64,000 bases of DNA from Schmidtea polychroa (lineage: Eukaryota), in contig CM097885.1 in assembly GCA_044892525.1 (NCBI GenBank), forward strand, positions 30,754,001 to 30,818,000. The letters run 5' to 3'. The notes under the pieces are model-generated. The model ran no database searches. It was not told the DNA's origin and saw only the letters and a program-made list of their open reading frames with translations. Both the position numbers and the translations under genes were made by a program. Positions 4,603-41,099 of the stretch are shown piece after piece (position 1 is the first letter of the stretch; the number at the start of each line of letters is the position of its first letter).

Positions 4603-5666
4603 ATGGAACAATTAGTTGCTTCAACTCAAAAAATTCACGAATTAGAAGATGTAAATTATTTTTTACAAAAAGAAAATGCTGGTCTTTCAAAGGACATTGA
4701 AAATTTGAAACAAGAATTAATCGGAAAAGATTTAATGGAAAGTGAATTACTCCAAAGAAATGAAGATTTAGCGAGAAAATTGACATTATTAAATATTGAT
4801 AAAGAAAATAGAAAATTTGAAGAATTATCCGAACAACTTTTACATTTTGATCCGGTTTCAAAAAATCTAAGAGAAAAGGAATTGTTGAGTAAATTTCGTC
4901 ATTGTCAAAATGAGAATGAAGCATTGAAAAAGAAAATAAATAATTTAAATAAACAAATCAAGTCACAAAATGAAGAAATAAAAATTATTTCTTTTGAATT
5001 GAAAAGATCAAAAGGTTTTAAAGTAGAATTACAAAAAGAAAATGCTGGTCTTTCAGAGGACATTGAAAATTTGAAAAAAGAATTAATCAGAAAAGATTTA
5101 ATGGAAAGTGAATTACTCCAAAGAAATGAAGATTTAGCGAGAAAAGTGACATTATTAAAAATTGATAAAGAAAATAGAAAATTTGAAGATTTATTAGAGA
5201 AACTTTTAACCTTTTATCAGATTTCGATAAACTTGACAGAAAAGGAATTGTTGAATAAATTACGGCCTTGTCAATATGAAATTGAAGCATTGAAAGAGAA
5301 AAAAATTGTTTAAATAAACAAATCAAGTCACGAAATGAAGAAATAAAAATTATTTCTTTTGAATTGAAAAGATTAAAAGTCTACAATGTAGAATTACAAT
5401 CTCATGCCGAAGTCGCCACTGATAATCGGACGAAATCAGAATTATTGGCGATTTTAAGATCTCGAATTGAAGAGAAAATCCACTGGGAAACATACGCAGA
5501 AACTCTTTTGAGAATGATTTTAGTTAAATGTCCTGATATACTTGAAGTTACTGCTATTAAACGGTATTGCGAAATTAGTTCAAGTGAGCTCGTCGACATG
5601 TGGAACTTCCACATCAATAAGGTCATTAATGAGTGTGAACTTGTTTCCAAATATAATACTTCGTGA
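4603..5666 (+). pseudogene. Coiled-coil repeat protein, copy 2, frameshifted
   Basis: ORFs 4603-5313 and 5364-5666 are joined by a 1-nt deletion near 5300 relative to copy 1. Internal 366-bp (122-aa) tandem repeat. Preceded by a splice-acceptor-like TTTTTAG. Confidence 0.6.
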
Positions 5667-6949
5667 AATGATTTTCCTGCTCCCCTAATGGAGATTGAGA
5701 TTTCACTTTTATTTATTTCAGTAAGAGAAAAAGTTTTTTTTGAACTTTTTTTCAAATTATTTACGACAAAAATTATCATTTATTCTTCCAAATCCGGCTT
5801 GTAGATTTGATTAATTTTTTTAACAGTTTATTTTAATTAATTTTCGCTTTGGATTTCTCATGTTTATTTTGTACAATTTGTTTTGTATTTATTTTTTATC
5901 AAAATTTTTTTTATTTTATTATTAAGAAACTGTTGAAAGCATATTTATTGAAAATTGGAATATCACTATTGTTTTAATTTTAAAATATTATTATTTTGTT
6001 TAATTACTTTTAATTTTTAAAATAAGTTAAAGAAAATGCATTTTCATATGGTCCAAATGAATCATCAGAAAGTAGATCATAAAATGCCCTCTAGGCCAGT
6101 TTTTGGTGCACCCTCCCCTTATTACTAACTAACAGAAATCAATAATTATTCCATTACTTAGTATTAACTTACTTAAATTACTTAACCTAATTATTTAGTT
6201 AAATTCTTTTTAAGTATAAAGTGATGATTTCTTGGTAGCAGCATTTGACAAGATTGACAAGGACTATCTTATAGTCGAAATTTTTTTCATTAAATACAGT
6301 ATTCGCTGCAAAAGGCTTAAATTATCACTTTATTGTTTTAAATTCTTTTTAATAATATTAATTTTTAAATATTTTAATTTGATTATTAAATTATTTTTTT
6401 TATTATTAACTTTATTTTGCTTAATTCTTAATTACTTTAAATAACTTTTTTTTATTTTGAAATTTTTTATATTAAAATTTAATTGTCTTTTTATTATTAT
6501 TAATACAATTACATATTAATTTTATTATTATTTTACATGTTTCGTATTTTTTTATTATTCAGAACACATACATAATGAATAGTCAGTTTATATACCATAA
6601 TTATTGTTAGCCACAGAACTTCTGGTATTAATTGGATCCATTTAATATTTCAAATACAACGTTTTATTATATAATCACAATAGTATTTAAACAAATCATA
6701 TCATAATTTGTTTGAGGAGTTTCTATAAAAATAATTAATGCATAAGTAAGGATTGCAACATACAGACAACATACAATAATAATTTAATAATTTTTTAGAA
6801 TGCCTCACAATTATTATAAATTTTAGCACTAATAACGACAAAAATAAATATGTTGCAAAATGAAAGATCCCATCATTGAATTCAAATAAATGACATTAGA
6901 GGGTTTAATACATATGATTTACATATACATAACAACAAAATAAGTTGAG

Positions 6950-10373: not shown

Positions 10374-12768
10374 CAGGGGCGGATTAAGCTTGCACGGGGA
10401 TCTTGGCTGCAATTCAAACTGGGGCCCGGTCCAGTACAGTGTCCATATAAAATGATTGCTAGCAGCTAATGTAAGACTGTAACTTGTAAGGCAGAGTTAA
10501 AAATAAAAAATTAAATATAAGTAAATTTAATTTATATAAAGTTAAATGAATTCACACTTCATTAAAATATTTATTATTAGACTATATATTTCAACCTAGA
10601 ACCTACGCTTGCGAACTTTTCTCATGGCGAAGTTATCAATTATGTCAGTAAAGCTAAGTGAGCATACAATTTCACTTTCGATGCTCATTAAAAAGAGCAG
10701 ACTCAGCCTTTGGCAGATGCCCCTCGGATGGCATCATTGCTGAGCTGAGTTAGGTTTGTAAGAAAGCCAAAGCTCTCATGGATGTCTTCATATGCGTCTA
10801 ACCGATGTTGGAGAGCTGAAGAGAGTTTTTCAATGATTACCAAAAATACCTCAACCTTGAATTTTTGTCTCGGTCAAAATACTGTTTCAGCTAATGGCCC
10901 TTTATCAAACTAACACTTTCTCTTTTGTAATATTATTGAAGATTGTTTATACTCTTTCTCCACAGACTTCTGCTTTCCTTTTTCTTCATAAGAATCAAAT
11001 TCAGAACGCTGCCTTTTAACAAACTCAAGGAGAGATTTCAACAAATGGATGGCTGAATTCAAAGATAGTCCTCGCTCTTGAAGGGACAAATTCGTTTTCT
11101 GAAATCTTTCTAAAATTGTGTAGCAAATTTCAAGTAAAATAGCGACTTTTAGTTGTTCAAGTTTTTCCGAAATCCTTCTGCTTTAAGTCGACTGTCACGC
11201 GGCTGATTTTAGTCAGTTGCCAATTCTTCCAATGATGCAATATTCTCATTGTATGATTTATTAACAGACCTCACAGCATCATGTCTGACTGATCATCTTG
11301 TGTCAGAAAAGGCTTTGTTAACAGGTAACCTTTTTAGGTGTTTTTGATGTACCTGCCAACGATGAGTAGATGCAACAAGCCAGGTATAAAGATTTTGCAA
11401 AAGGCAAAAAAAATCTGGCTGCAGCAGGACAACCTTCTGCTGCAATTTTCCCAAACAAATTAAGGGAATGAGCCGTGCACGGCACATAATGAGCAACACT
11501 GCACTTCTCACGAAGGATAGCCTTATACTTCCCACTCATATTTGCAGCGTTGTCGTATGACTGTCCACGGCAATCTTGAATTTGAATGCCATTTTCTTCC
11601 AAAAAATTAAGAATAGTTCGGGCAATTTCTGATCCAATGTGGGAATACATTGGTATGAACTTGATGAATCGTTCTACAGGGCCAAATTGTGCAACATACC
11701 GGATTATCACTGTTAACTGGTCCACATGCATAACATCTGGCGTGGAGTCTACAGATATCGAGAAGTACTTTGCAGATTTTATTTCAGCAACAATAACAGA
11801 CAATACCTTTTGACCCATCAGTTCAATCAACTCTTCACAGATAGTTGAGGAAATATAAGACGTGTGCCACATCCTTTATTTCCATGTTGGGAGATATGTT
11901 CAACAAGAAATGTGTCAAACTGACTCAGTAGTTCCAGCATTCCAAGGTAGTTACCATTGCTCGGTGAGCCTAAAAGTTCGATTTTTGCCACGGAATCCAA
12001 GACCACGAATACAAAGAAATTGTATAACGCTTACTATCCTTATAAGTACTTTTTTCCAATATTGGACTTCACTTTCAAATTGCTTGGAAAGATTGGAGTC
12101 TATTTGCATGGATGATTTACGACCACTTAGTGTTGCCATTACATTAAGATGTTGCTTAGAGTTTTCATGACTCGAAAGCATTTCATGGGCATGCTTCGAA
12201 TCCTTAAAGCCAGTTGTAAGCTTGCTCACTGTCTGTGAGATCAACTTGCATACAAAACAATAAACACAGTCACTAGTTTTTGAATAGCATAACCAATTTC
12301 TGTCAAACCGCTTTCCTGTTCGCGCATGAGCACGTGTAAACAATGTTAAAGTACAATAACGGCTTTGTCCCTCCTTATCCGAATGTATACATGATTCTTT
12401 AAAACCGTCATCCTTATGTTGACAAAATGATGAACCACGCTGAATCAAGTGATTATGCATGTTCTCAGAGATTTTTTCTGGCCAAAGATGAAGATCATTA
12501 ATGGCAACATAATCCAAATCCATAACAGCCTGTGAAGAAGCAGGCTCATTAGTCATGACTTCAGTGTTCACTGAGTTCTCTTCATAATCTGTTTTTGGCA
12601 TCGTAGTTGGGTTGCAGAAGAATGTAATTTTATGAGTTTTTTCATATAACTCCTTTTCTCTTTTTTCAGTTTTAATGAAGCTGCACGATTTTGTGCGCCA
12701 CTGGGATATGAACGTTGCATGACTATAATTAATTTCTGATATAAAAACAAATTTTAGACAACGATATA

Positions 12769-21039: not shown

Positions 21040-24000
21040 TAGCTATTTTCATTTACTCAATTATGAGATTGTATAAATAGATATTGATTAAATAGAAAAG
21101 ATCTAAAATTCATTTTATAATAAAATGACATATTCAGGGAACTCCGTGTTTAAGTGCTTATGTCACATACCACCGAAACGAAGATGCATTAAAAACTCTT
21201 GTCGATCTAAAAAAATTAGAAATCGACGGTAGAGTTGTAAAATTATCTCTGGGAACAACAAAATACTGTAGTCAGTTTTTACGGAACCGGAAATGTACAA
21301 AACAAGACTGCATGTATCTTCATGAGATGGGTGATCAAGCTGCCAGTTTTACTAAAGAAGACATGGCAAACGGTAAACATACCGACTATGAAAATCAGCT
21401 AATCCAAGAATATCATGATATATTGAAACTCATTATTGTCAATGTTTGTACATCTTCATCGACATGTACCACAACATCGGTTACAAATACTGATTGTGCA
21501 ACACCTACCCAAAGAAAAACCAGTTTGACAACCAGTTCATCAATTAGCGCAGCAGCAGCAGCAGTTGTAGTACCGAATCTTTTACCATCTACCGCCACAA
21601 AGTCTCAGCGTCCGGGTTTAATCCAAATGACGCCAATTGGAACCGACCCGAATGATGCCAGTAAACTCTATTCAGTTTCTGGCGAAATTAGCAATTCAAA
21701 AGTAACCGTCAGTAAATCCACCACAGAATTAACCTCTAGCGTTTCGAAAGATATAAACTATCAGCATAGTATACTAGATAACAATTCTCAATTATCAAAT
21801 GTCGTATCACATCCAAGTGAAATATTAACCAGTACACTGAATTCCACATCTCCCCTGTCACGGGTTTCAGATCAGAAATCATTTATGAACAGTTTGAATT
21901 CAGTTGGTTCGTCGAATTCTCTGCTGGAAAGTTTCTACCAGTTAAATTCTCAAAACCACGCCGCAATCAACAATAACAACAATAATAATAACAACAACAA
22001 CAACAATAATAATCAGTCATACGATCACAACATTAATCAACAGGCAAACAACAACGGTGTGCTTAACTACGGTCAGTATCAGTATCGAAACGAAATGGAT
22101 ATAAATCGCATATTTGGCTCGGAGAAACCGAATTCACATTACGATCAGAAATATAAAGATACAGCCGATATAGATTTTGATCCGATTAATGTTTCCCGGC
22201 AAGCATTGGCTGAAATGATTGCCGTTGAAAATCGTCAAAAAATGACTCCGATCAATAATTATATACCAAATAACAAATTGCTAACGAGTGATGTCTTATA
22301 CGCAGCCCCACAACGCAACATGCTTCGACCAAATCCAAATGAATTCTTAATGCAACAGAATAATGATTTTTTCACATTAAACTCTCGTGCACCGGGACAG
22401 CCATTTATTCACGATAATAAACCGTCTCCCAGCGAATCGAGACTCAATCAGCAAATGTCCAATCTAAATCTAGTTGGAAATTCAAACAATATTATTCCTA
22501 GCACTTCAACTGCTGTGCAATCACTTTCTTCCGGTTTCCCATCACCTCCTCCTGGGTTTGAGTCAACAAGCAATAACAATTGTCTTGGTGATCCGTCATC
22601 CAATGATATTATGACTATGATAATGAATTCAAACAATGTTGACATGTATCCAAGGTATCAGAATCAACACTCAACTCCAGATCTTCAATTGGGAATGAAT
22701 CATAATCAGTTCAATAATCAGTTTCCTATCAATTATAACTGTCAAAATCAGGTAGCTACTTTTATCATATTTTGTATTGTTAAATTCCATTGCATTATGA
22801 TAATAGCAATTATTATTATATCCAGCGATATAAATATTAGTTTCCTGTTAGTAATTCGTAATTATAGAATTTCTATTCTAATTTATTGTTATATTTAAAT
22901 TATCATTGATACTCTACAACTAATTTGAAACTCCTTCCAATCATTGGCTGATTGGCTAAAAATATATTTGATCTGTAATTTCATTAAATTAATGATTTAC
23001 AATAATTATTTTAAATCAATATTATTAAATTAATGTTTTACGGTAATTATTATAAATCAATAATGGAGATCAATATTATTAAATTAGTTTTTACGGTAAT
23101 TATTAGAAAATCAATAATGAAGATCAATATACTGAAGATAATAATAACGAAGATTTTTTAATCATTGTCTAATTGGCTAAAGATATATTTGATCTGTAAT
23201 TCATTAAATTAATGATATACAATAATTATTTTAAATCAATATTACTAAATCAATAATGAAGATCAATATTAGTTGAATAATTGTTATATTTAAATTGTCA
23301 TTGATACTATACAACTAATTTGAAACTCCCCTTCCAATCATTGGCTGATTGAATAAAAATATATTTGATCTGTAATTTTATTAAATTAACGATTTACAAT
23401 AATTATTATGAGTCAATAATGAAGATCAATATTGTTAAATTTGTTTTACAGTAATTATAGTAAATCAATATGGTTATATATTAAAAAGAGAGCTTGAAGA
23501 CTATAAATCAGTTTATATATCGATGTTTTGATACTCACGAATTTTCGGCACTGCCTTTTTCAAGTGAATTTATATATCGATTACAAGTAATTACAAATAA
23601 ATGTAATTTATTGATTTGGATTTGGATAATAACTTTTAATTTTAATCGATAAAATGACATTTTAATTTCAATGCTCTCTAAAAATATACTTTTCTCTATC
23701 AAATAGTGGATTATTTGTCTCTAGTCGGGCAGTAATTTTTTGAATAAATATTTTACAATAATTTTTTATTTTAATCAATTATGCAATATTTCCATTCAAA
23801 TGCAACCGGCAATCGATTACACCCATTCAACTTATGTATAATTTATCCCAGTATTTTTGTTACAAAAATCATTGACATTTAACATATTGATTGGAATTTT
23901 TAAATACACTTTTCTCTATTGATTTAAAAGATTCTATCCAAATTTCACCAGGAAATCTCCATTGAAACTGCTAAATTATTATCATATTAATTGTTTTGAT

Positions 24001-31900: not shown

Positions 31901-33380
31901 ATTTAATTCTTTTATCCTATTAAACCAATCCAAAGTATTTTGCTATTGAAGTGAGATACATCTATTTTGAATATATTGAGATTATCCCTGAACTTTACTT
32001 TTTTGTATATTATTCACACAAACAGAGATTTCAGTGTTAATCGAAGTTTTGTTTTTTGCCTACTGGACTCACTCGTACTTCTTTCTCCTGACCATCAGGG
32101 GTAGATCTGACTACACCAGGGTGTACGTTCCTAGATTGTGTTGTACATGAATGTGTCCATTTTAGAGAAAAATTAATTGTAATCGCAAATTATAATTAAA
32201 AGAGTAAAACTAATTTAACATAATACAAATTTTCTAAAAATAAATCTCCTTCAACGAAGCATAAAAATATATTGGCTTTAAGGGTACAATGAACTACAAA
32301 ACAAACTCAACAATAAATTTTATAACGTAGAAGTTTAATCATTTATATGTGAAGCCTTACTTTTGGGGCTTCTTCAACTTGAATTCGGATAGTTCTATCT
32401 TCTCTTTACTTAGGATTGTTGTTGAATGGTTTTCCACGTTCTAGTTTTGCCAAAATTTCACTGGTTTTTCTTGTTTTAGTTTAGATTTCTGTTGAGTTTG
32501 ATCAGTTTATTTCTATTGATAGTTGTTTTCTTTTGAGGGTGTCTCTAAGTGATTTTTCCTTTATGAGTGCTCCTTATCCGAGATTTTGTTTGAGCCTGAC
32601 AGATTTGCTTTTCGTAGTATAGTGTTCTTGTCTTGGAGTTTGTAATTTGTAGATTTTTTGTGTCGTTCTTTTGTATTTTATTGGGTATTTAATCATTTGG
32701 TTTTATCTCAGGTAAAATTCAAAGCTACCTGATCAACAGTTGAATAATTTTAGTTAAGTGCTGTTGATTCAGCAACTTTCTCTCCGAAGTTTAAAAAACA
32801 TTGATTCTACTTAAGTCTAAATTTGAATATCAAATTAGAATTTTTAATTTTCTTTCTGACTATTTTTCGTAGTCGTTTTTTCGCGTTGATTTATCAATAA
32901 TTTATTTATCCAACTTATCGTTCTATTGGATTTTAACGATTTATCATAGTTTTATTGAAGTTAATGACAGATGCCCCCTAAAATTCCATTATCTTCCGAT
33001 ACTAGGAAACCTATATCTACATTTTTAAAATTCGGTAAAAACTCCGTTGCTTATTTTTTGTTCGTTTTTTCTGTGGGGATAACTTGCAATTTTAAATTCA
33101 GTTCAGCCGCACAGCCCCAGAGTGAAATTCCATTTTCTACTAAAAAAACTAAGAGATCTATAATAGTTCTCGAAGAATAGACGATAGGAGATATTTTTGG
33201 GAATGATTCTTGCAAGTTTTGATGACCTTCTAAATTGCCAATCCCCTGTGTTTTTTCAATGACATATTTAGTTTAACAACAATATTTGGTCAGCCGCCTA
33301 ATCTGGTATTGCGATATCTCTATGTTGTTTATCACTTTCTTGATCAGAATATACTTCAAATTCATAACCGAAACCTTTAA

Positions 33381-34220
33381 AGTAGTATATAATGAGGACT
33401 CCAGCGCACTTTCAATGTCATGGAATATCAAGATCTAATATAGACCAATCGAATCATTTATTTTTTTTAATTAACATTTTATTTAATTACTTCTTTTTAA
33501 TTTTTTCTTTTTAATTTTATTAATTAATTATTTTATTATGTTTTATTTTAATTTATTACATTTAATTAATTTATTAGTTTATTAATATTTTATTTTAATT
33601 ACTTACGCTATTTAATTATTATTATTATTATTTTTTTTTATTTATTTATTTATTTATTTTTTTTTAATTAAAATTTTATTTAATTACTTCTATTTATTTA
33701 TTTTTCTTTTTAATTTTCTTAATTAATTATTTTATTATGTTTTTTTAGTTACTTACTTTAGTTACTAACTTTAGTTAATTTTTAATTTATTACATTTAAT
33801 TAATTAATTAGTTTATTAATATTTCATTTTAATTACTAACGTTATTTAATTATTATTATTATTATTTATTTTATTTATTTTATTTATTTATTTATTATTA
33901 TTTTTTTTTAATTTTACATTTACATTATATTCTAACAAGAGCGTAAATTATAACATTAATATTTCAATTTGAATAAAATTTTAATTAGAAATTATTTAAT
34001 TTATTATAAAATAAAACGCTGAGTTAATTTTAGATAAACCGGATATTAATTTTTCGGAAAAAATAAATAAATAAATAAAATAAACACGAAAATAATATTT
34101 CTTACTTGAAACTAATTATCTAAATTAATTGGACAAATGAATAATTAAATGATAAAACACATTATAATTAACTAAATCAAACAATTCGCAATATATATTT
34201 TATTATTCACATAAATTTAA
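33381..34220 (+). repeat. Left TIR (840 bp) of the Polinton-like element
   Basis: Reverse complement of 40243-41021, apart from few substitutions and indels (including a ~47-bp segment near 34039-34085 absent on the right). Confidence 0.95.
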
Positions 34221-34633
34221 AAGAGACAAAGGGGTGAAAAGAGATAGAAAAAACAGTAGAGTAGGGTAATGTGTGGAGCCGGGTGAAACCTTTGCATAGA
34301 TCTCTTCAAGACCTTTCGAATGATGTGAATAAAATATAATTAAATTTTAAAATACCGCAACGTAATATATTTAAAATACCGCAACGTAATATATTTAAAA
34401 TACCGCAACGTAATATATTTAAAAAGTATGATGAGTAATATGTCTTTATTACGTAATATGTATTTGTTATGTAATTAATAAAATTTTAAAAAAAACCATC
34501 CACCCAGGGGTGGGGGTATGACGCAATGTCCCATGTGACGTCATCGATTACGTAATAGTTCTTTGTTCCCGGCTCCACACATTACCCTACTCTACTGTTT
34601 TTTCACTCTCTTTTTCACCCCTTTGTCTCTTTT
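34219..34633. repeat. Inner ~65-bp inverted repeat enclosing 3 x 24-bp tandem repeats
   Basis: Arms at 34219-34283 and 34568-34633. AAAATACCGCAACGTAATATATTT x3; TGACGTCA near 34536. Confidence 0.9.
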
Positions 34634-34724
34634 CTCTAAGTGCGATTGGGATTTAAGTGTAACCATGTATAGGCAGAATTTAATTCTCTACAAAATGGCT
34701 CATTTACAATTTTAGTTTGTCGCT

Positions 34725-35135
34725 TTGTGTGTAATACACACACATTTTTTTACAATAAATTTGTATTTTTCGCGCGGTTAACGTAATTTTCTTGGATTTT
34801 TATTCATATATTATATAGATAAAATTTAATTTTCTATAAAATAGCTTGATTAAAAATTATGTCTCGTATGTTGTGTGTAATACACACATGTTTTTACGAT
34901 AAATTTGTATTTTTCATACAGTTAACGTAATTTTCTTAGGATTTTATTCATATAATATATAGATAAAATTTAATTTTCTATAAAATGGATTGATTAGAAA
35001 TTATGTATCTTATTTTGTGTGTAATACACACATGTTTTATGATAAATTTGTATTTATTATACGTTAACGTAATTTCCTTGGATATTTATTCATATATTAT
35101 AGAGATAAAATTTAATTTTCTATAAAATGGATTGA
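34725..35135. repeat. Three ~143-147-bp tandem repeats, each starting with a TGTGTGTAATACACACA hairpin
   Basis: Copies start near 34726, 34873 and 35016. Confidence 0.88.
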
Positions 35136-35739
35136 TCTAGAGTTTAAAATGTTGTATTATTTTATTACTTTGTTGCAATATTTTTATAATCTTATAACAA
35201 TTTGCTTAAATATTTTACATCTGGTGAAATATTTCCGAAATATGTTATTACTTTGTTGTAATTTACTGAAAGACTTCACAATTTATTACAATATTCTTTT
35301 TTAATTTGTTGTCCGTCTTCGAAATAATGTATTGATTTGTCCCAATTAACATCATTATTTTATTACTTTGTTGCAATATTTTTATTATTTTAGTTACAAT
35401 TTGAGTAATATTTTACAACTTTGTTGAAATTTTCTGAAATATGTTACTACTTTGTTGTAATATTTTCTAATCTTGTTACAATTTGCTTAAATATTTTACA
35501 ACTGTTGAAAATTTATCTGAAATATGTTATTACTTTGTTACAATTTTATGAAAACTTTATTACTGTTTTGCAATTTGATGAAAAATGATATTACTTTGTG
35601 GGTTCATCACATTATTTTTATTAAATTATTATGAAAATGTTAAATAAGTCAAATTTAGCGTAAAAATGTGTTTTAATATATATTGAAGTTTTAAAATACT
35701 GCAACGTAATGCATTTATTTTTCCTACCCCTTCCTTGAT

Positions 35740-35805
35740 TTTGATTGGTCAGAATTTAATCATGTGTAATATATAAGCAGTAACTTTTCAAATGTTTGTC
35801 ATTTA
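35740..35805 (+). promoter_or_regulatory. Putative Pol II promoter of pPolB
   Basis: Inverted CCAAT (TGATTGGTC ~35742), TATATAAG ~35770 and Inr-like TCATTT ~35799. Confidence 0.45.
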
Positions 35806-35831
35806 AACTTTTAATTTAACTTATATAAGTG

Positions 35832-36180
35832 CAGTGGCGTACCAAGGATTTCTGGGGCCCTTGTGCAGATTTTGGGACGCACAAAATATTTGTCGAACGA
35901 TGTGATCCGAGGAACCAAACCAAGCAAATAATTTAATAGATGAATGGGTGTGACACATGTGGTTTACAACTATATCCAATATAGATTCCAAATAATATTA
36001 AATGTATAAACCGTCCAAACTGTGGTTGCTGTCTTAATAAAAACAAAACAAACGCCAAAGCGATGCTTGGTTTGATGACAATCGGGGAATTTATAATGCT
36101 CGAACGTATAAATTTTACTAATTTTTCCTCCTGGGCCCTTGTGCCGTGCACAACCTGCACAACGTATTGCTACGCCACTG
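35832..36180. mobile_element. hAT MITE in the pPolB 5' UTR
   Basis: TIR CAGTGGCGTA(C/G)CAA, 8-bp TSD TATAAGTG. Confidence 0.93.
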
Positions 36181-36184
36181 TATA

Positions 36185-37242
36185 AGTGAATAACTTTTTA
36201 TTCTCTATCTAATATTAATGATTATTTTCTTTTAGTGAACGGATGCAGTTTATATAAATTTTGTATTGCCGAAAGTCATGAAGATGTGGAGAACTGTAAA
36301 TCAGTTACATCATCATATTTCAAGATAAATGACTCTACCTTATCGGTTTACATATGTCCGGAATGTCTCATTATATCACCAGGTAGGTGGTTAATGTTTG
36401 TACGACAACACGGACACCATCTTAGAAGATTCGAAGAAACGAAGAGCAGGATGATCACTCTTTCTACTATTAACAATTATTAATTTTTTATAGAACAATC
36501 GAAAATGAATACATCATACGATCCTAAGCAGATTAAAGAATATGTTACAAGTTATGTTATTTAAGTTGTTTAATATTAATTATAAATATAGTTAGACAAA
36601 ACTCTGGCACCGCAAAACGAAAGTCAATATTTTACGGAAATGGAGACTCTAACATACAATTGTGTCCACGTCGGGAGTCTGACTTAAATGGTTCTCGTGT
36701 TGAATTGACAAGCGATGTATCTGCAATTAATTCTCCTGACATTGTTGTTCCAGATTGTCTCATCAAAGAAATAGAAGATCATATTCAACGAATGGGGACA
36801 GTAAAAATCCAATTTGGACTTTGTGCAGAGTTTATCAAAGAGGATGGTGAAATTAAAAAATGGTGTTTGTCGAATAAAGCAATTACAATGTCATCTTCAT
36901 TTATTAATGATGGAATTGAAAAATTAAAAGAAAAGTTGGAGAAATACACTCAACAAAGTAGTGGGTGGAGAATTCATAAAATATTAGAAGTTACTATGAT
37001 TTTAACTAAATTATCAGACATAATACATGTATCTGGTAAGTTTATTTACATTATTATATATATAAATCAAGAGATTACTTAGGTTCAAGTTACATTAAAA
37101 CGCCAAATTACCTGAAAAACTGTCAGGCTTTAGTTAATGTTCAAAACAATGATCAATTCTGTTTTTTATATAGCATACTAGCCGTATTACATTATGATGA
37201 CATACGTCGGGATAGAGAAGGAACAAGAAAATATAACTTAAG

Positions 37243-37333
<91 letters not shown>

Positions 37334-40239
37334 TTATAAATGTCATAAATCATTGAATTTTGTTTTTAAGACTTAAAATGGAAATTTGAATGGTTTCCGA
37401 TGAAGTTGGTTAACATTTGTCAATTTGAAGCAATGAATCCAAATCTAGCGATCAATGTTCTCAAATATAATAAAGATCCAATTAAACAAAAAACTAATGA
37501 TATTTTCAAGAATCCGTTCGTTGACTTGGTATATAGAAGTACTTCGACGGGATCTCAGATATATCTCCTATTGATTGAAGAAGGTAATATTTCTTTTAAT
37601 CATTAAAAATATTAACTATATTTAGAATTAAATTATCATTTTTTGGCTGTAACTAATCTCGATCGACTGCTGAATTACAGAGATAGAGTAGAAGGAGTCA
37701 GAATCCAATCACATTGGTGTCATACATGTCTTCATGGGTTTCGAAAACATCCTGCTTTTGAAAGACATATAGGTCTTTGTAGGAAGAATGTGGAGCGGAC
37801 GACTCTATACTCAATGCCAGAGAATAAATATATCGAATTTAAAGACTGGAGTAAAACTATAAAACAGCAGTTTGTTGTCTACGCGGACTTTGAATCGATA
37901 TTACCTCTAGATGACAAGCACTTCTAAAAACATGAACCGATTGCATCTGAATTTGTGCTTCTTCATCAAGGTTGTCCGATCCGAAATGAAACATTTGTTG
38001 GGAAAAACTGTATCATTCAGTTTATACAAGCATTGGATGATATAGCTACAGACATAGTTTATCCGTGGTATAAAACTAATGGATCGAAGGAAATGATGGA
38101 ACTCACCTGGGAATAGCAGGAAGAATTCACGACTCAAACACATTGCTACCTTTGTAAAAAGATTATCAATATACCTGTTCGAGATCATGATCATTTTACT
38201 GGTCAATATCTCGGAGCAGCATATCAAGATTGCAACTTGGCTAGAAGAATCAATCCGTCTTTACCTGTTGTATTTCATAATCTTCGTGGATATGACATTC
38301 ATCATATATTAAAATATGCAATTGGAAAATTCCCCGATTGGAATTTAAATGTTATTCCTCAATCAACAGAAAAGTTTCTCACACTTACAGCGACATCGAA
38401 AGGCAGAAGAATTAGATTCATTGATTCTTTACAATTTTTAAATAGCAGCTTGGCAAATTTATCAAAAAATTTACCATGTCTTCCACTGACCTCAGATGTT
38501 TTCGAATCACAGATGATGACTTGTAAAAACATTTTTCCTTATGATATGGCTACATCAATGGATGTTTTACAGTCAATAACAGAATTACCACCGATTTGGG
38601 AGGGAGTTAGCCAAGAAGATTATATACATGCAAATCGAATCTGGCAACAATACAACTGTGAGACACTGCTAGATTACATGCTAGTATATCTCAAGCTGGA
38701 TGTTTTTCTATTGGCCGATGTTTTTGAAGCTTTCAGAGAAAAAACATTTGACGAAGATGGACTTGAGGCTCTATCGTTTGTTTCCATACCCGGATTAAGT
38801 TGGGCATCAGCTATTAAACAGTTACCTGAACCGGTAGAACTTATTCAAGATCCAGAGCTTTACCGTTTATTTGAAGCTGGTATTCGTGGTGGAATGACAT
38901 TTATCAACAAACATCATGTTGAAGCTGATGAATCAACACAAATGTCATACCTAGATGTTAATAATTTATATGGATGGGCGCTGTCGCAAAAACTTCATAT
39001 TGGTGAATTTAGATGGATAAATGATCAGACTGAAATGAATGGTATTGTTGAAAGATGTGCAAATGGGGATGAGTTTGATGGAGATCGTGGATATGTTCTA
39101 GAGGTTGACATCGTCATTCCTGATAGTATACAAGATAAGCTAGATGATTTACCTATAGCTCCTGAGCTTTGTTATCCACCTGGTAGTAAAGTTGAAAAGC
39201 TGTTAATTACACACGAATCGAAGACCAATTATGTTATTAATAGTAGAGTTTTGACTGAATGGTTGAGTTATGGCGCAAAAGTCACAAAAGTTAATCGTGC
39301 TGTAGAATTCAAGCAAGTAGCTATTTTTAAAGGCTATATTGATTACAACACCCAAATGAGAGCAGCTAGTACGGATTCGTTTCAGCGAGATTATTATAAG
39401 TTAAAGAACAACAGTTTATACGGTAAAACTGTGGAAAACATGAAGAAACGTATAAATTTGAGATTATGCAACCAAAGCAACCAAAACAACCAAACTTATT
39501 GTAGTCATCCTATGTTTCGTCGTAGCATCAAGATTGCGGATGATCTCATTGCTGCTATACTTGATTAGGAAATGGTGTGTTTAGATAGACCAATGTATAT
39601 TGGACAAAGCGTACTTTATCTAATTTATCTAAACTTCGCATGTACCAGTTTCAATTTAAAGAACTAGAGAGTTATAGAGAAGAATTCAATTGTCAAATTA
39701 ATATCGTAGCCGGTAACACAGATTCCTTGTTTTTAGAGTGTAAAAATGTTGATTTACGCTTACAACTGTATCCAAAAATGATTGCCGATGGGCTCCTAGA
39801 TACTTCAAATTATCCAGTGACTGATCCATTGTTCTCAGATAAAATTTGTTCGGTAATCGGGAAATTCAAGGATGAGAATAAAGGAAATCAATATAAAGAA
39901 TGGGTGTTTCTTCGACCCAAGTGCTACTCACTCCAAGGCGATAAAAACACTCTAAAAGCCAAAGGAATAAGACTTACAAACTCTAATCTTACACATGAAG
40001 CCTATAAAAAAGTGTATACTGATGGTGGAACAGTGAGCATCCCACAAAAAAGAATAGGAAGTGTCAATCATCAGTTGTATACTTTCATGACCGAAAAACG
40101 AGCTCTCCAATGTTTGGACGATAAAAGGTATTGGTACAATTGTAATGAAAGTTATGCCTATGGTCACTATAAGATTCGTCAAATGCATATTGCAACTGCT
40201 ATGTCTAGAAATGAATGCAAATCGAAACAAGCACTTTAA
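36185..40239 (+). pseudogene. Intron-containing protein-primed family B DNA polymerase (pPolB), ~1,200 aa when repaired
   Basis: Motifs SGW, GSSYIKTP..VNVQNNDQFCFLYSILAVLH, FPMK..FEAMN, YADFES (ExoI), RDHDHFTG (endoVII-like), FHNLRGYD (ExoII), LKLDV (ExoIII), DVNNLYG, KNNSLYGK and GNTDS. Introns at 36186-36235, (36383 or 36449)-36493, 36551-36591, 37036-37082, 37242-37370 and 37584-37625. Stops at 37925, 38114 and 39566; frameshift near 39620. Confidence 0.93.
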
Positions 40240-40242
40240 CAA

Positions 40243-41021
40243 TTAAATTTATGTGAATAATAAAATATATATTGCGAATTGTTTGACTTAGTTAATTAAA
40301 AAGTGTTTTATCATTTAATTATTCATTTGTCCAATTAATTTAGATAATTAGTTTCAAGTAAGAAATATTATTTTCGTGTTTATCTAAAATTAACTCAGCG
40401 TTTTATTTTATAATAAATTAAATAATTTCTAATTAAAATTTTATTCAAATTGAAATATTAATGTTATAATTTACGCTCTTGTTAGAATATAATGTAAATG
40501 TAAAATTAAAAAAAAAATAATAATAAATAAATAAATAAAATAAATAATAATAATAATAATAATTAAATAACGTTAGTAATTAAAATGAAATATTAATAAA
40601 CTAATTAATTAATTAAATGTAATAAATTAAAAATTAACTAAAGTTAGTAACTAAAGTAACTAAAAAAAACATAATAAAATAATTAATTAAGAAAATTAAA
40701 AAGAAAAATAAATAAATAGAAGTAATTAAATAAAATTTTAATTAAAAAAAATAAATAAATAAATAAAAAATAATAATAATAATAATTAAATAGCGTAAGT
40801 AATTAAAATAAAATATTAATAAACTAATAAATTAATTAAATGTAATAAATTAAAATAAAACATAATAAAATAATTAATTAATAAAATTAAAAAGAAAAAA
40901 TTAAAAAGAAGTAATTAAATAAAATGTTAATTAAAAAAAAATAAATGATTCGATTGGTCTATATTCGATCTTGATATTCCATGACATTGAAAGTGCGCTG
41001 GAGTCCTCATTATATACTACT
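40243..41021 (-). repeat. Right TIR (779 bp) of the Polinton-like element
   Basis: Reverse complement of 33381-34220; begins 3 bp after the pPolB stop. Confidence 0.95.
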
Positions 41022-41099
41022 CTTTAACACCACAGAAAATAATAATTTGAAACTTCAATTGTAATGTTTTAGATGTTGTTTAATGAATTGACATATTTT

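Follow-up and report, generated by a model that had tools for sequence, protein, structure and literature searches.

The element at positions 33381 to 41021 of the window (the 64,000-nt stretch of Schmidtea polychroa DNA analysed here) has intact ends, as originally predicted. Its termini read AGTAGT...ACTACT, and the 6-bp target site duplication (TSD) CTTTAA flanks it at 33375..33380 and 41022..41027. The expected 840- and 779-bp terminal inverted repeats (TIRs) are also present. The left one (33381..34220, forward strand) is AT-rich and mirrors the right one (40243..41021, reverse strand); their alignment contains 772 matches, five substitutions, and seven gap events, one of which is a 46-bp gap in the right copy. 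These apparent TIRs are the outer parts of two arms of unequal length. The left arm is interrupted by a deletion junction with 2 nt of microhomology (34220..34221), beyond which only its inner 39 bp remain (34221..34259, forward strand), ending in the fixed junction motif ACAGTAG and mirroring 34592-34630. This second inverted repeat (34221-34630), which the original prediction missed, surrounds a 332-bp palindrome centre, or loop (34260..34591), that consists of the ends of another Polinton family, a composition not stated before. The centre contains three 24-bp repeats (34346-34424) and TIR sequence of a full Polinton, family A, with a 24-bp family-A terminus at both its edges; its flanks are inverted to each other and do not represent a TSD. 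The right arm is complete according to comparison with other copies (6,430 bp including a MITE; 34592..41021, forward strand). On the same strand it contains 2.9 copies of a 144-bp tandem repeat (34725..35136), whose copy number differs among elements, degenerate 31/83-bp repeats (35153..35599), and a putative promoter-like region (35624..35779) resembling a stretch of other Polinton-type elements in the genome. This region features a TATA-like motif at 35770 and, at 35693, an 18-bp box shared with the centre repeats and the family-A TIRs.

A single gene for a protein-primed DNA polymerase (pPolB) had been proposed as the only gene of the element. One pPolB gene is indeed encoded (PF03175, E 3.6e-19), and tblastn with eight helper core proteins (two integrases, two ATPases, two major capsid proteins (MCPs), a protease, and a minor capsid protein) retrieved no match in the whole window. 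The gene (35779..40239, forward strand) is predicted from the DNA to contain six phase-1 GT-AG introns: 35780-36235, one with its acceptor ending at 36493, 36551-36591, 37036-37082, one with its acceptor ending at 37370, and 37584-37625. In the window copy it is a pseudogene. The donors of introns 2 and 5 are lost, and motif C, which is canonical in 43 of 44 other sampled copies, is altered. The last exon (37626..40239, forward strand), which codes for an exonuclease with an endonuclease-VII-like insert and for the polymerase, carries all three stops (37925, 38114, and 39566) and a frameshift caused by a 5-nt insertion near 39616. This pPolB copy is dead. Neither its introns nor its breakage had been stated in the original prediction. 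The MITE noted earlier was confirmed as a 349-bp insertion in intron 1 (35832..36180) with short TIRs and an 8-bp TSD, by whose length we take it to be hAT-like. It is missing from the other copies spanning the site and is private to the window copy among those sampled.

An unbroken family copy encodes about 1,236 amino acids (PF03175, E 1.3e-29) including the exonuclease and polymerase motifs. All five internal exons are multiples of three in length, the splice sites are conserved in all 19 other arms compared, and indels in the 5' region fall within introns. The exon at 36592..37035 (forward strand) encodes a predicted terminal-protein domain. Its structural model (36594-37034, pLDDT 89.1) matched best the little finger of PDB entry 4IR1, with a middling Z score of 8.5 (rmsd 2.4, 92 aligned residues), and eight of the nine top PDB structure matches were Y-family polymerases. 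The best viral matches were adintovirus and MELD PolB, and a PDB sequence search remained blank. Polinton pPolB is described as carrying an N-terminal terminal-protein domain with an LF/PAD fold (PMC11161782), and the family polymerase is predicted to keep this fold. Between the terminal protein and the exonuclease, at the place where a vOTU protease domain would be expected, the alignment shows conserved Cys- and His-bearing stretches that have no Pfam match. No internal stop interrupts 61 of the best 66 pPolB matches. Among 24 arms, dN/dS was 0.20 when calculated from shared changes and 0.56 when calculated from singletons, and the shared value of about 0.2 indicates that purifying selection acted on the family pPolB.

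The window element is a decayed, half-deleted, one-armed copy of a larger palindromic family. Complete members are palindromes of about 11.9-14.6 kb, whose two arms of ~6 kb are 97.5-99.97% identical and each hold a whole six-intron pPolB pointing outward. From left to right, they consist of an outer end, a leftward pPolB, promoter and repeats, the centre, repeats and promoter, a rightward pPolB, and the other outer end. Among the best 66 pPolB matches, 36 form 18 divergent pairs. Taken in genome order, the first 100 of 870 pPolB matches include 64 non-cluster ones, of which 42 make up 21 divergent pairs and none has a same-strand neighbour within 40 kb. Likewise, when the first 100 of 685 inner-arm ends were inspected, 66 were arranged head to head in 33 pairs, which in 32 cases enclose centres of 215-2,590 bp. 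Both outer ends were found at 21 of 23 loci, and no two of these 21 have the same 6-bp TSD; two more such cases were found elsewhere. The palindrome inserts as a whole and generates a 6-bp TSD, and the family comprises several hundred elements in the genome. Within 13 two-armed elements, the arms of the same element differ by 0-4 of 1,917 nt (by none in nine elements), and the nearest other element differs by 1-39 of 1,917 nt. Most of these structures were derived from best-scoring or first-listed loci, a sampling that favours intact copies and chromosome C1. Close to the start of C1, pPolB matches cluster on one strand. An array of whole arms was considered for this cluster and rejected, since it consists of 3' fragments in composite tandem units.

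No rve integrase, ATPase, protease, or major or minor capsid genes belonging to family elements were detected by tblastn at 50 family loci; the core-gene matches lay in the flanks, apart from one helper piece behind a TIR fragment. The centres contain no ORF of at least 130 amino acids that matches helper core proteins. In two long family members, a family-X Polinton is nested as an insertion of its own. The genome also contains a palindrome without genes (L128-129), whose arms measure 7 kb and whose ends are those of family B. Two family copies at different loci (L018 and L020) share the same 111-bp pPolB deletion, and defective copies are therefore apparently able to move. Half-elements that combine a helper end with an end of the family itself were also evaluated and rejected: in the four cases with sequence of both flanks (L019, L234/248, L244/247, and L235/249), these flanks are not a TSD.

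Potential helpers are plentiful. Family A is a full Polinton with integrase, ATPase, MCP, protease, and minor capsid genes; eight of eight end pairs have a 6-bp TSD, and 511 end matches and at least 150 integrase matches were found. Family B, also a full Polinton, has 810 end matches, and families A, B, and X all begin with AGTAG. The short centre of the palindromes is assembled from end sequences of two full Polinton families, with the join at one fixed nucleotide. This nucleotide is the start of all 39 distinct arm-flanked centre ends, several of which match free helper ends over 67-70 of 70 nt. Moreover, centres have been swapped between near-identical arms. Elements whose pPolB arms are only 4 nt apart have different centre types (A in L002, B in L025), as do the sisters L132 and L134. 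Inner-arm variants mostly travel with the centre type, and some swaps may therefore be crossovers between elements and not fresh captures.

The left arm of the window copy is short by about 5.5 kb, including its pPolB copy, and the deletion junction has one match genome-wide at up to one mismatch. Siblings of ~7.3-7.6 kb with the same structure, as anticipated for a mobile form, did not turn up, and the sole other 7,642-bp element (L008) has a different interior. Because the pPolB is dead and the junction is single in the genome, the 7.6-kb form is not the mobile unit. The initial interpretation as an integrase-less, pPolB-only Polinton derivative holds at the family level, where 6-bp TSDs and abundant AGTAG helpers agree with it, but not for a mobile 7.6-kb form. 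Full helpers starting with AGTAG are common as expected, but none of full length was found with the family's own outer ends. The alternative of a one-off deletion was correct in that the deletion is real and its junction unique; however, the parent was a two-polymerase palindrome, which had not been foreseen, and the relatives are not full-length Polintons but palindromes of 12-14.6 kb. Similar losses from the left arm, with an endpoint no more than about 65 bp away from the stem-loop boundary, are found in the window and at L033, L041, L234, L244, L240, and L242, and other deletions removed the centre altogether (L001, L035, and L043). The window pPolB has accumulated 24 private changes in 1,917 nt, from which ~18 TIR differences would be expected, but five were seen (P about 0.0003). 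Decay was thus not simply post-insertion, as the TIRs differ less than the pPolB damage predicts. Possible reasons are a move of this copy after it had become defective, in-place conversion of its TIRs, or incomplete sampling of close relatives.

The resemblance of the TIRs would also be in line with a one-armed ~7-kb form that is itself a mobile "mini-Polinton", with one pPolB, ordinary TIRs, and a helper integrase acting in trans. Two more one-armed, TSD-flanked elements (6,982 and 6,970 bp) do occur among 13 single-pPolB sites examined, and the apparent movement of the defective L018/L020 type points in the same direction. However, their junctions differ from that of the window copy, and no one-armed junction was found twice. 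The three elements also differ in centre and end subtype and are 84-95% identical in their common parts, and the best other copies of the window element reach 98% over 401 nt, among 40 that were scored out of 1,346 candidates. We consider a mobile one-armed form improbable. An artefactual origin of the palindromes in long-read sequencing or assembly, for example from fold-back chimeric reads, is very improbable. Some arms are indeed 99.97% identical, and one derivative has flanks that are 100% inverted, but 21 of 21 elements lie between unique, non-palindromic flanks with their own 6-bp direct TSD. In addition, the arms bear private indels and substitutions, the centres are asymmetric, and a nested Polinton is present in one arm only (L060-062).

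Another explanation would be that the palindromes are passive, fully helper-dependent fold-back elements, in which pPolB is a passenger and host gene conversion maintains arm identity. The gene-less palindrome L128-129 shows that such an architecture can spread without a polymerase, and helper polymerases abound in the genome. This explanation is nevertheless quite improbable with respect to the low dN/dS of shared pPolB changes, the retention of motif C and of the splice sites, the confinement of 5' indels to introns, and the outer ends, which are the family's own and not those of a helper. The pPolB family further differs from L128-129 in having a polymerase in both arms and helper ends inside.

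The family pPolB is 54-56% identical to those of families A and B and 27% to that of family X. It groups with two metagenome proteins that are 61-63% identical (SH-aLRT 98 in a quick tree), and by these comparisons the family polymerase does not appear to derive from the full Polintons sampled here. No parent Polinton with the family pPolB was found among the loci sampled. Four long end pairs or centres, regarded as parent candidates, turned out to represent nested insertions of family X (L057-062) or a palindrome of another kind (L123-125). Helper genes were present at three of the 13 single-pPolB sites (L233, in a separate element, L237, and L239). A search of IMG/VR yielded three distant loci. 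The closest metagenome contigs, of about 4 kb, contain pPolB alone and are too short to show the architecture, and longer related metagenome contigs contain no long inverted repeats.

Like Polintons/Mavericks, for which (AGT)2 ends and 6-bp TSDs are described (PMC8097293), the palindrome family combines these features with a fusion of terminal protein and pPolB. Unlike them, it lacks integrase, ATPase, protease, and capsid genes and has two pPolB copies, and its inverted repeats are about 6 kb long with the gene inside, compared with a reported 100-1,500 bp (PMC10748475). Its pPolB has six predicted spliceosomal introns, whereas Maverick core genes are reported to be intronless where intact in vertebrates and nematodes. 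Nine Polintons without MCP, protease, and ATPase together have been noted (PMC4028283), and cytoplasmic linear plasmids are described as Polinton descendants that lost the morphogenetic module (PMC11161782, PMC4405056). The palindrome family resembles such virion-less Polintons and linear plasmids (pGKL, kalilo type) as a capsid-less pPolB replicon. In contrast to these, it is wholly palindromic, has no gene beyond pPolB, lacks RNA polymerase and capping genes, and is integrated with TSDs despite having no integrase. Chromosomal copies with TSDs and spliceosomal introns do not correspond to a cytoplasmic or mitochondrial linear plasmid, and the introns indicate that the family is nuclear. Snap-back or copy-back defective genomes likewise have one end duplicated as a long mirror image with a short loop. 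However, the palindrome family is heritable, integrated, and present in hundreds of copies with a selected polymerase, its loop consists of the ends of another element, and no parent was identified among the sampled loci. Other palindromes are those of Tetrahymena rDNA and of Streptomyces linear plasmids. In yeast, breaks close to inverted repeats are described as leading to inverted duplications through fold-back priming (PMC10622511).

On balance, we regard it as probable that the window element is a decayed one-armed copy of a palindromic Polinton satellite that is self-replicating, helper-integrated, and of fold-back origin. The family would have arisen when, in an ancestral Polinton, a short helper-ended element lay upstream of the pPolB promoter and a single strand folded back and primed itself. 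This event would have doubled the pPolB end, while the remainder of the ancestral Polinton was lost. Such TIR-seeded fold-back fits one short family member within a DDE transposon, whose flanks are perfectly inverted (316 of 316 nt; one case), although no parent Polinton with this polymerase was found among the sampled loci. Excised copies might replicate from both ends by means of their own terminal protein-pPolB fusion, and the displaced strand could form a 6-kb panhandle that keeps the two arms near-identical. Alternatively, chromosomal gene conversion could account for arm identity. The rve integrase of resident full Polintons, which have the AGTAG start in common with the satellite, would insert it, and template switching at AGTAG may trade the centre for the ends of co-replicating helpers. 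Integrated palindromes would then lose one arm by deletion, often from the stem-loop boundary, and the window copy may be such a product.

A further-reaching and tentative interpretation sees in the family a distinct animal nuclear replicon, a palindromic, polymerase-only polintovirus satellite that replicates as free linear DNA, exploits several unrelated helpers, and repeatedly takes up their ends in its centre through end-to-end template switching. It would use its own protein-primed ends and depend on helpers for integration and perhaps for packaging, as its size is near that of the helpers, and the loop ends might serve as an enhancer or packaging signal.

Palindromic or two-polymerase Polintons were not described in the mostly open-access papers searched. 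In genome annotation, such palindromes risk being mis-called as short-TIR mini-elements or written off as assembly artefacts. As for the window copy, it is an ordinary fossil. The self-copying mode of Polintons has been inferred from gene content. A family whose mirror arms number in the hundreds and are near-identical, whose polymerases were under selection, and whose loops consist of helper ends renders a panhandle/strand-displacement model and integration in trans testable, and existing long-read and RNA data would suffice for this purpose. Polinton replication intermediates are not known to have been observed directly; if the further-reaching interpretation is true, the centres would be a written record of them. 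The family may also illustrate how an integrating virus can become a plasmid-like nuclear replicon, with its polymerase gaining introns on the way.

The element at positions 33381-41021 of the window is flanked by a copy of CTTTAA on each side, has AGTAGT/ACTACT termini, and carries TIRs of 840 and 779 bp whose alignment has 772 matching positions, with 5 substitutions and 7 gap events. Its sole protein-coding sequence is pPolB; a search for integrase and virion-type genes with eight core proteins of the putative helper Polintons gave no match in the 64-kb window. A MITE of 349 bp (35832-36180) with an 8-bp TSD is not present in other family copies spanning that site. Since all these features were found again on re-measurement, the structure described in the original prediction is correct. 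The polymerase gene itself is dead. It contains stops at 37925, 38114 and 39566 and a frameshift near 39616, the donors of two introns are lost, and motif C, canonical in 43 of 44 other sampled copies, is altered. Two of the stops, checked by alignment column, occur in none of 36 other aligned arms.

The element is a decayed copy of a palindromic family, whose members consist of two mirror arms, each with an outward pPolB, around a short centre. Its right arm (34592-41021) is kept whole and the centre (34260-34591) is also kept, but the left arm is reduced to its outer 840 and inner 39 bp, with ~5.5 kb missing. The original prediction envisaged either a 7.6-kb satellite mobile in this form or a one-off internal deletion after insertion. 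Of the former there is no sign, as the deletion junction occurs once genome-wide and the nearest other copies, among 40 scored of 1,346 candidates, show 98% identity over 401 nt. The latter agrees with the unique junction and the lost ~5.5 kb; however, 24 private changes in pPolB predict ~18 differences between the TIRs, where 5 are observed, and this counts against purely post-insertion decay. Taken alone, the window copy is a fossil.

In the AT-rich genome of 781 Mb (1,012 contigs, four of them large), a degenerate pattern for the outer arm end has at least 341 matches, a pPolB 24-mer has 870 (at least 36 of them fragments in a single tandem cluster), and 685 matches fall to the inner arm end, a sequence also found in at least one sister family. 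Among the 66 best pPolB matches, 61 lack internal stops and 36 fall into 18 divergent pairs. Likewise, 42 of the 64 non-cluster matches among the first 100 of 870 in genome order form 21 such pairs, and 66 of the first 100 of 685 inner ends pair head-to-head (33 pairs). Such pairs, when opened, proved to be giant palindromes, 11.9-14.6 kb long, whose two arms (~5.4-6.6 kb) are 97.5-99.97% identical to each other and each contain a whole pPolB gene oriented outward. Both outer ends were located at 21 of 23 loci, and the 6-bp TSD differs in 21 of 21. All of these samples are biased to intact copies and chromosome C1. The palindromes are inserted as units. That they are artefacts of fold-back reads is highly improbable, because their unique flanks and direct TSDs, private differences between arms and a nested insertion confined to one arm all appear to speak against it. 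The one-armed form could also be a mobile element in its own right: among 13 single-pPolB sites examined, two others (6,982 and 6,970 bp) each have their own TSD. Their junctions and centres differ from those of the window copy, nothing indicates that the latter spread in that shape, and we consider this reading unlikely. Across the family, seven left-arm deletions, that of the window copy included, end at most ~65 bp from the stem-loop boundary, other deletions removed the centre itself, and a 111-bp pPolB deletion is common to two loci.

An unbroken pPolB copy is predicted from the DNA to contain six phase-1 GT-AG introns, 41-99 nt long, and a split start codon. Each of the five internal exons has a length divisible by three, and the predicted product has ~1,236 aa. 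The splice sites are conserved in all 19 other arms compared, whereas the introns vary in length and sequence; the later intron positions are read through in one frame in a pPolB of the resident Polinton family A and in the closest metagenome proteins. For the third internal exon a little-finger/PAD fold is predicted (pLDDT 89; structural match 4IR1, Z 8.5), which the available text of PMC11161782 reports for Polinton terminal proteins. Across 24 arms, dN/dS is 0.20 for shared changes and 0.56 for singletons, and within each of 13 elements the arms differ at 0-4 of 1,917 nt, compared with 1-39 to the nearest other element. Selection on pPolB and arm homogeneity are both evident here, and it is quite unlikely that the gene is a passive passenger whose arm identity stems from host gene conversion. 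The identity to resident pPolBs (54-56% for families A and B, 27% for X) and, in a quick tree, the grouping with two metagenome proteins of 61-63% identity point to a separate lineage with no parent found among the sampled loci.

Full Polintons are present in the same genome. Family A encodes integrase, ATPase, MCP, minor capsid, protease and a TBP-like gene; 511 matches to its ends and at least 150 to its integrase were counted, and 8 of 8 end pairs have a TSD. The core genes of family B (810 end matches) are 95% identical to these but its pPolB is different; X and Y are less closely related. All four share the AGTAG start with the palindromic family. The TBP-like gene, present in A and B, was identified at L050:2736-3224 (PF00352, E 5e-15), and a family X integrase carries a fused phospholipase-A2-like domain (L058:3936-5327, PF08398, E 5.4e-9). 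Nested Polintons are frequent, repeatedly in or beside TIRs (L060-062, L057-059, L053-056, L073, L086-087, L009, L130, L134-135). Inverted pairs of family-A integrase matches a few kb apart (G000:C4:60551544-60553886, C2:12270854-12276873) could represent palindromes derived from this helper.

The centre of the palindromes is of helper origin. It both starts and ends with an A or B terminus (once with a third type). The join invariably follows one and the same motif of the arm, and the flanks are inverted and show no TSD. Of 30 ends sampled from each family, 4 in A and 8 in B are flanked by an arm. Several centre ends are identical to free helper ends of various subfamilies at 67-70 of 70 nt, and centre types differ between elements whose pPolB sequences differ at 4 nt. 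The repeats in the centre contain an 18-bp box that recurs in the TIRs of family A and in the promoter region of pPolB.

In the reading that we consider the most likely, the family would have originated by fold-back at a short insert with helper ends, similar to the inverted-repeat-seeded duplications described in the available part of PMC10622511. Both ends would serve self-replication via a long panhandle, a helper integrase would supply the integration step, centres could be exchanged through template switching at AGTAG, and palindromes would decay by deletion of an arm. If a short TIR element seeds fold-back, mirror-image flanks are expected, and in a single case, a 3.3-kb family member (L250:1902-5234; G000:C1:2835352-2838684) inside a DDE transposon, the flanks are perfect mirror images over the 316 nt compared. 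From its translation, we take the host transposon to be Tc1/IS630-like.

Other palindromes and repeats were also encountered. A 15.4-kb palindrome (L128-L129, G000:C1:33265903-33281268) has 7-kb arms (99.2%), family-B ends and a 6-bp TSD, and no ORF in it reaches 150 aa. A second polymerase-bearing palindrome (L123-L125, G000:C1:55491000-55521000) combines an inner arm like that of the palindromic family with a family-B-like pPolB; its 14.9-kb centre is itself palindromic and begins with a third end type. At L237, sequence resembling the gene-less palindrome abuts a palindromic-family arm at the equivalent of window position 35323, which suggests recombination between the two. Near the start of C1, G000:C1:380000-1340000 (L136-L147) contains 36 same-strand pPolB 3'-end fragments in composite tandem units of 2.3-4.6 kb, mixed with pieces from other Polinton families; this may be a segmental array or a cluster that acts in silencing. 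Within the window, an ORF of 528 aa without Pfam match (21312-22898, plus strand), whose ends presumably resemble the C-terminal part of CNOT4, is probably a host exon. Fragments of a hAT-type transposase lie at 11318-12601 on the minus strand (DUF4371, E 2.7e-10), and an 831-bp direct repeat (1-831 and 5167-5995, 96.8%; further partial copies at 4663-5399) is LTR-like or a local duplication.

The palindromic family behaves like a helper-dependent Polinton derivative and like a snap-back defective genome. Unlike Polintons, it has no integrase or virion genes and contains introns (six predicted here), whereas intact vertebrate Polintons are reported without introns in the accessible sections of PMC8097293; Polinton TIRs are given as 100-1,500 bp in those of PMC10748475. 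A two-polymerase palindrome is not described in the available portions of PMC6431247, PMC8532177, PMC4028283, PMC4405056, 10.64898/2025.12.11.693146 or 10.1101/2022.07.12.499685, and a search of the mostly open-access literature found no description of such palindromic Polintons. New here are the anatomy of a two-polymerase family without a parent among the sampled loci, the selection on its polymerase, and a centre built of exchangeable helper ends.
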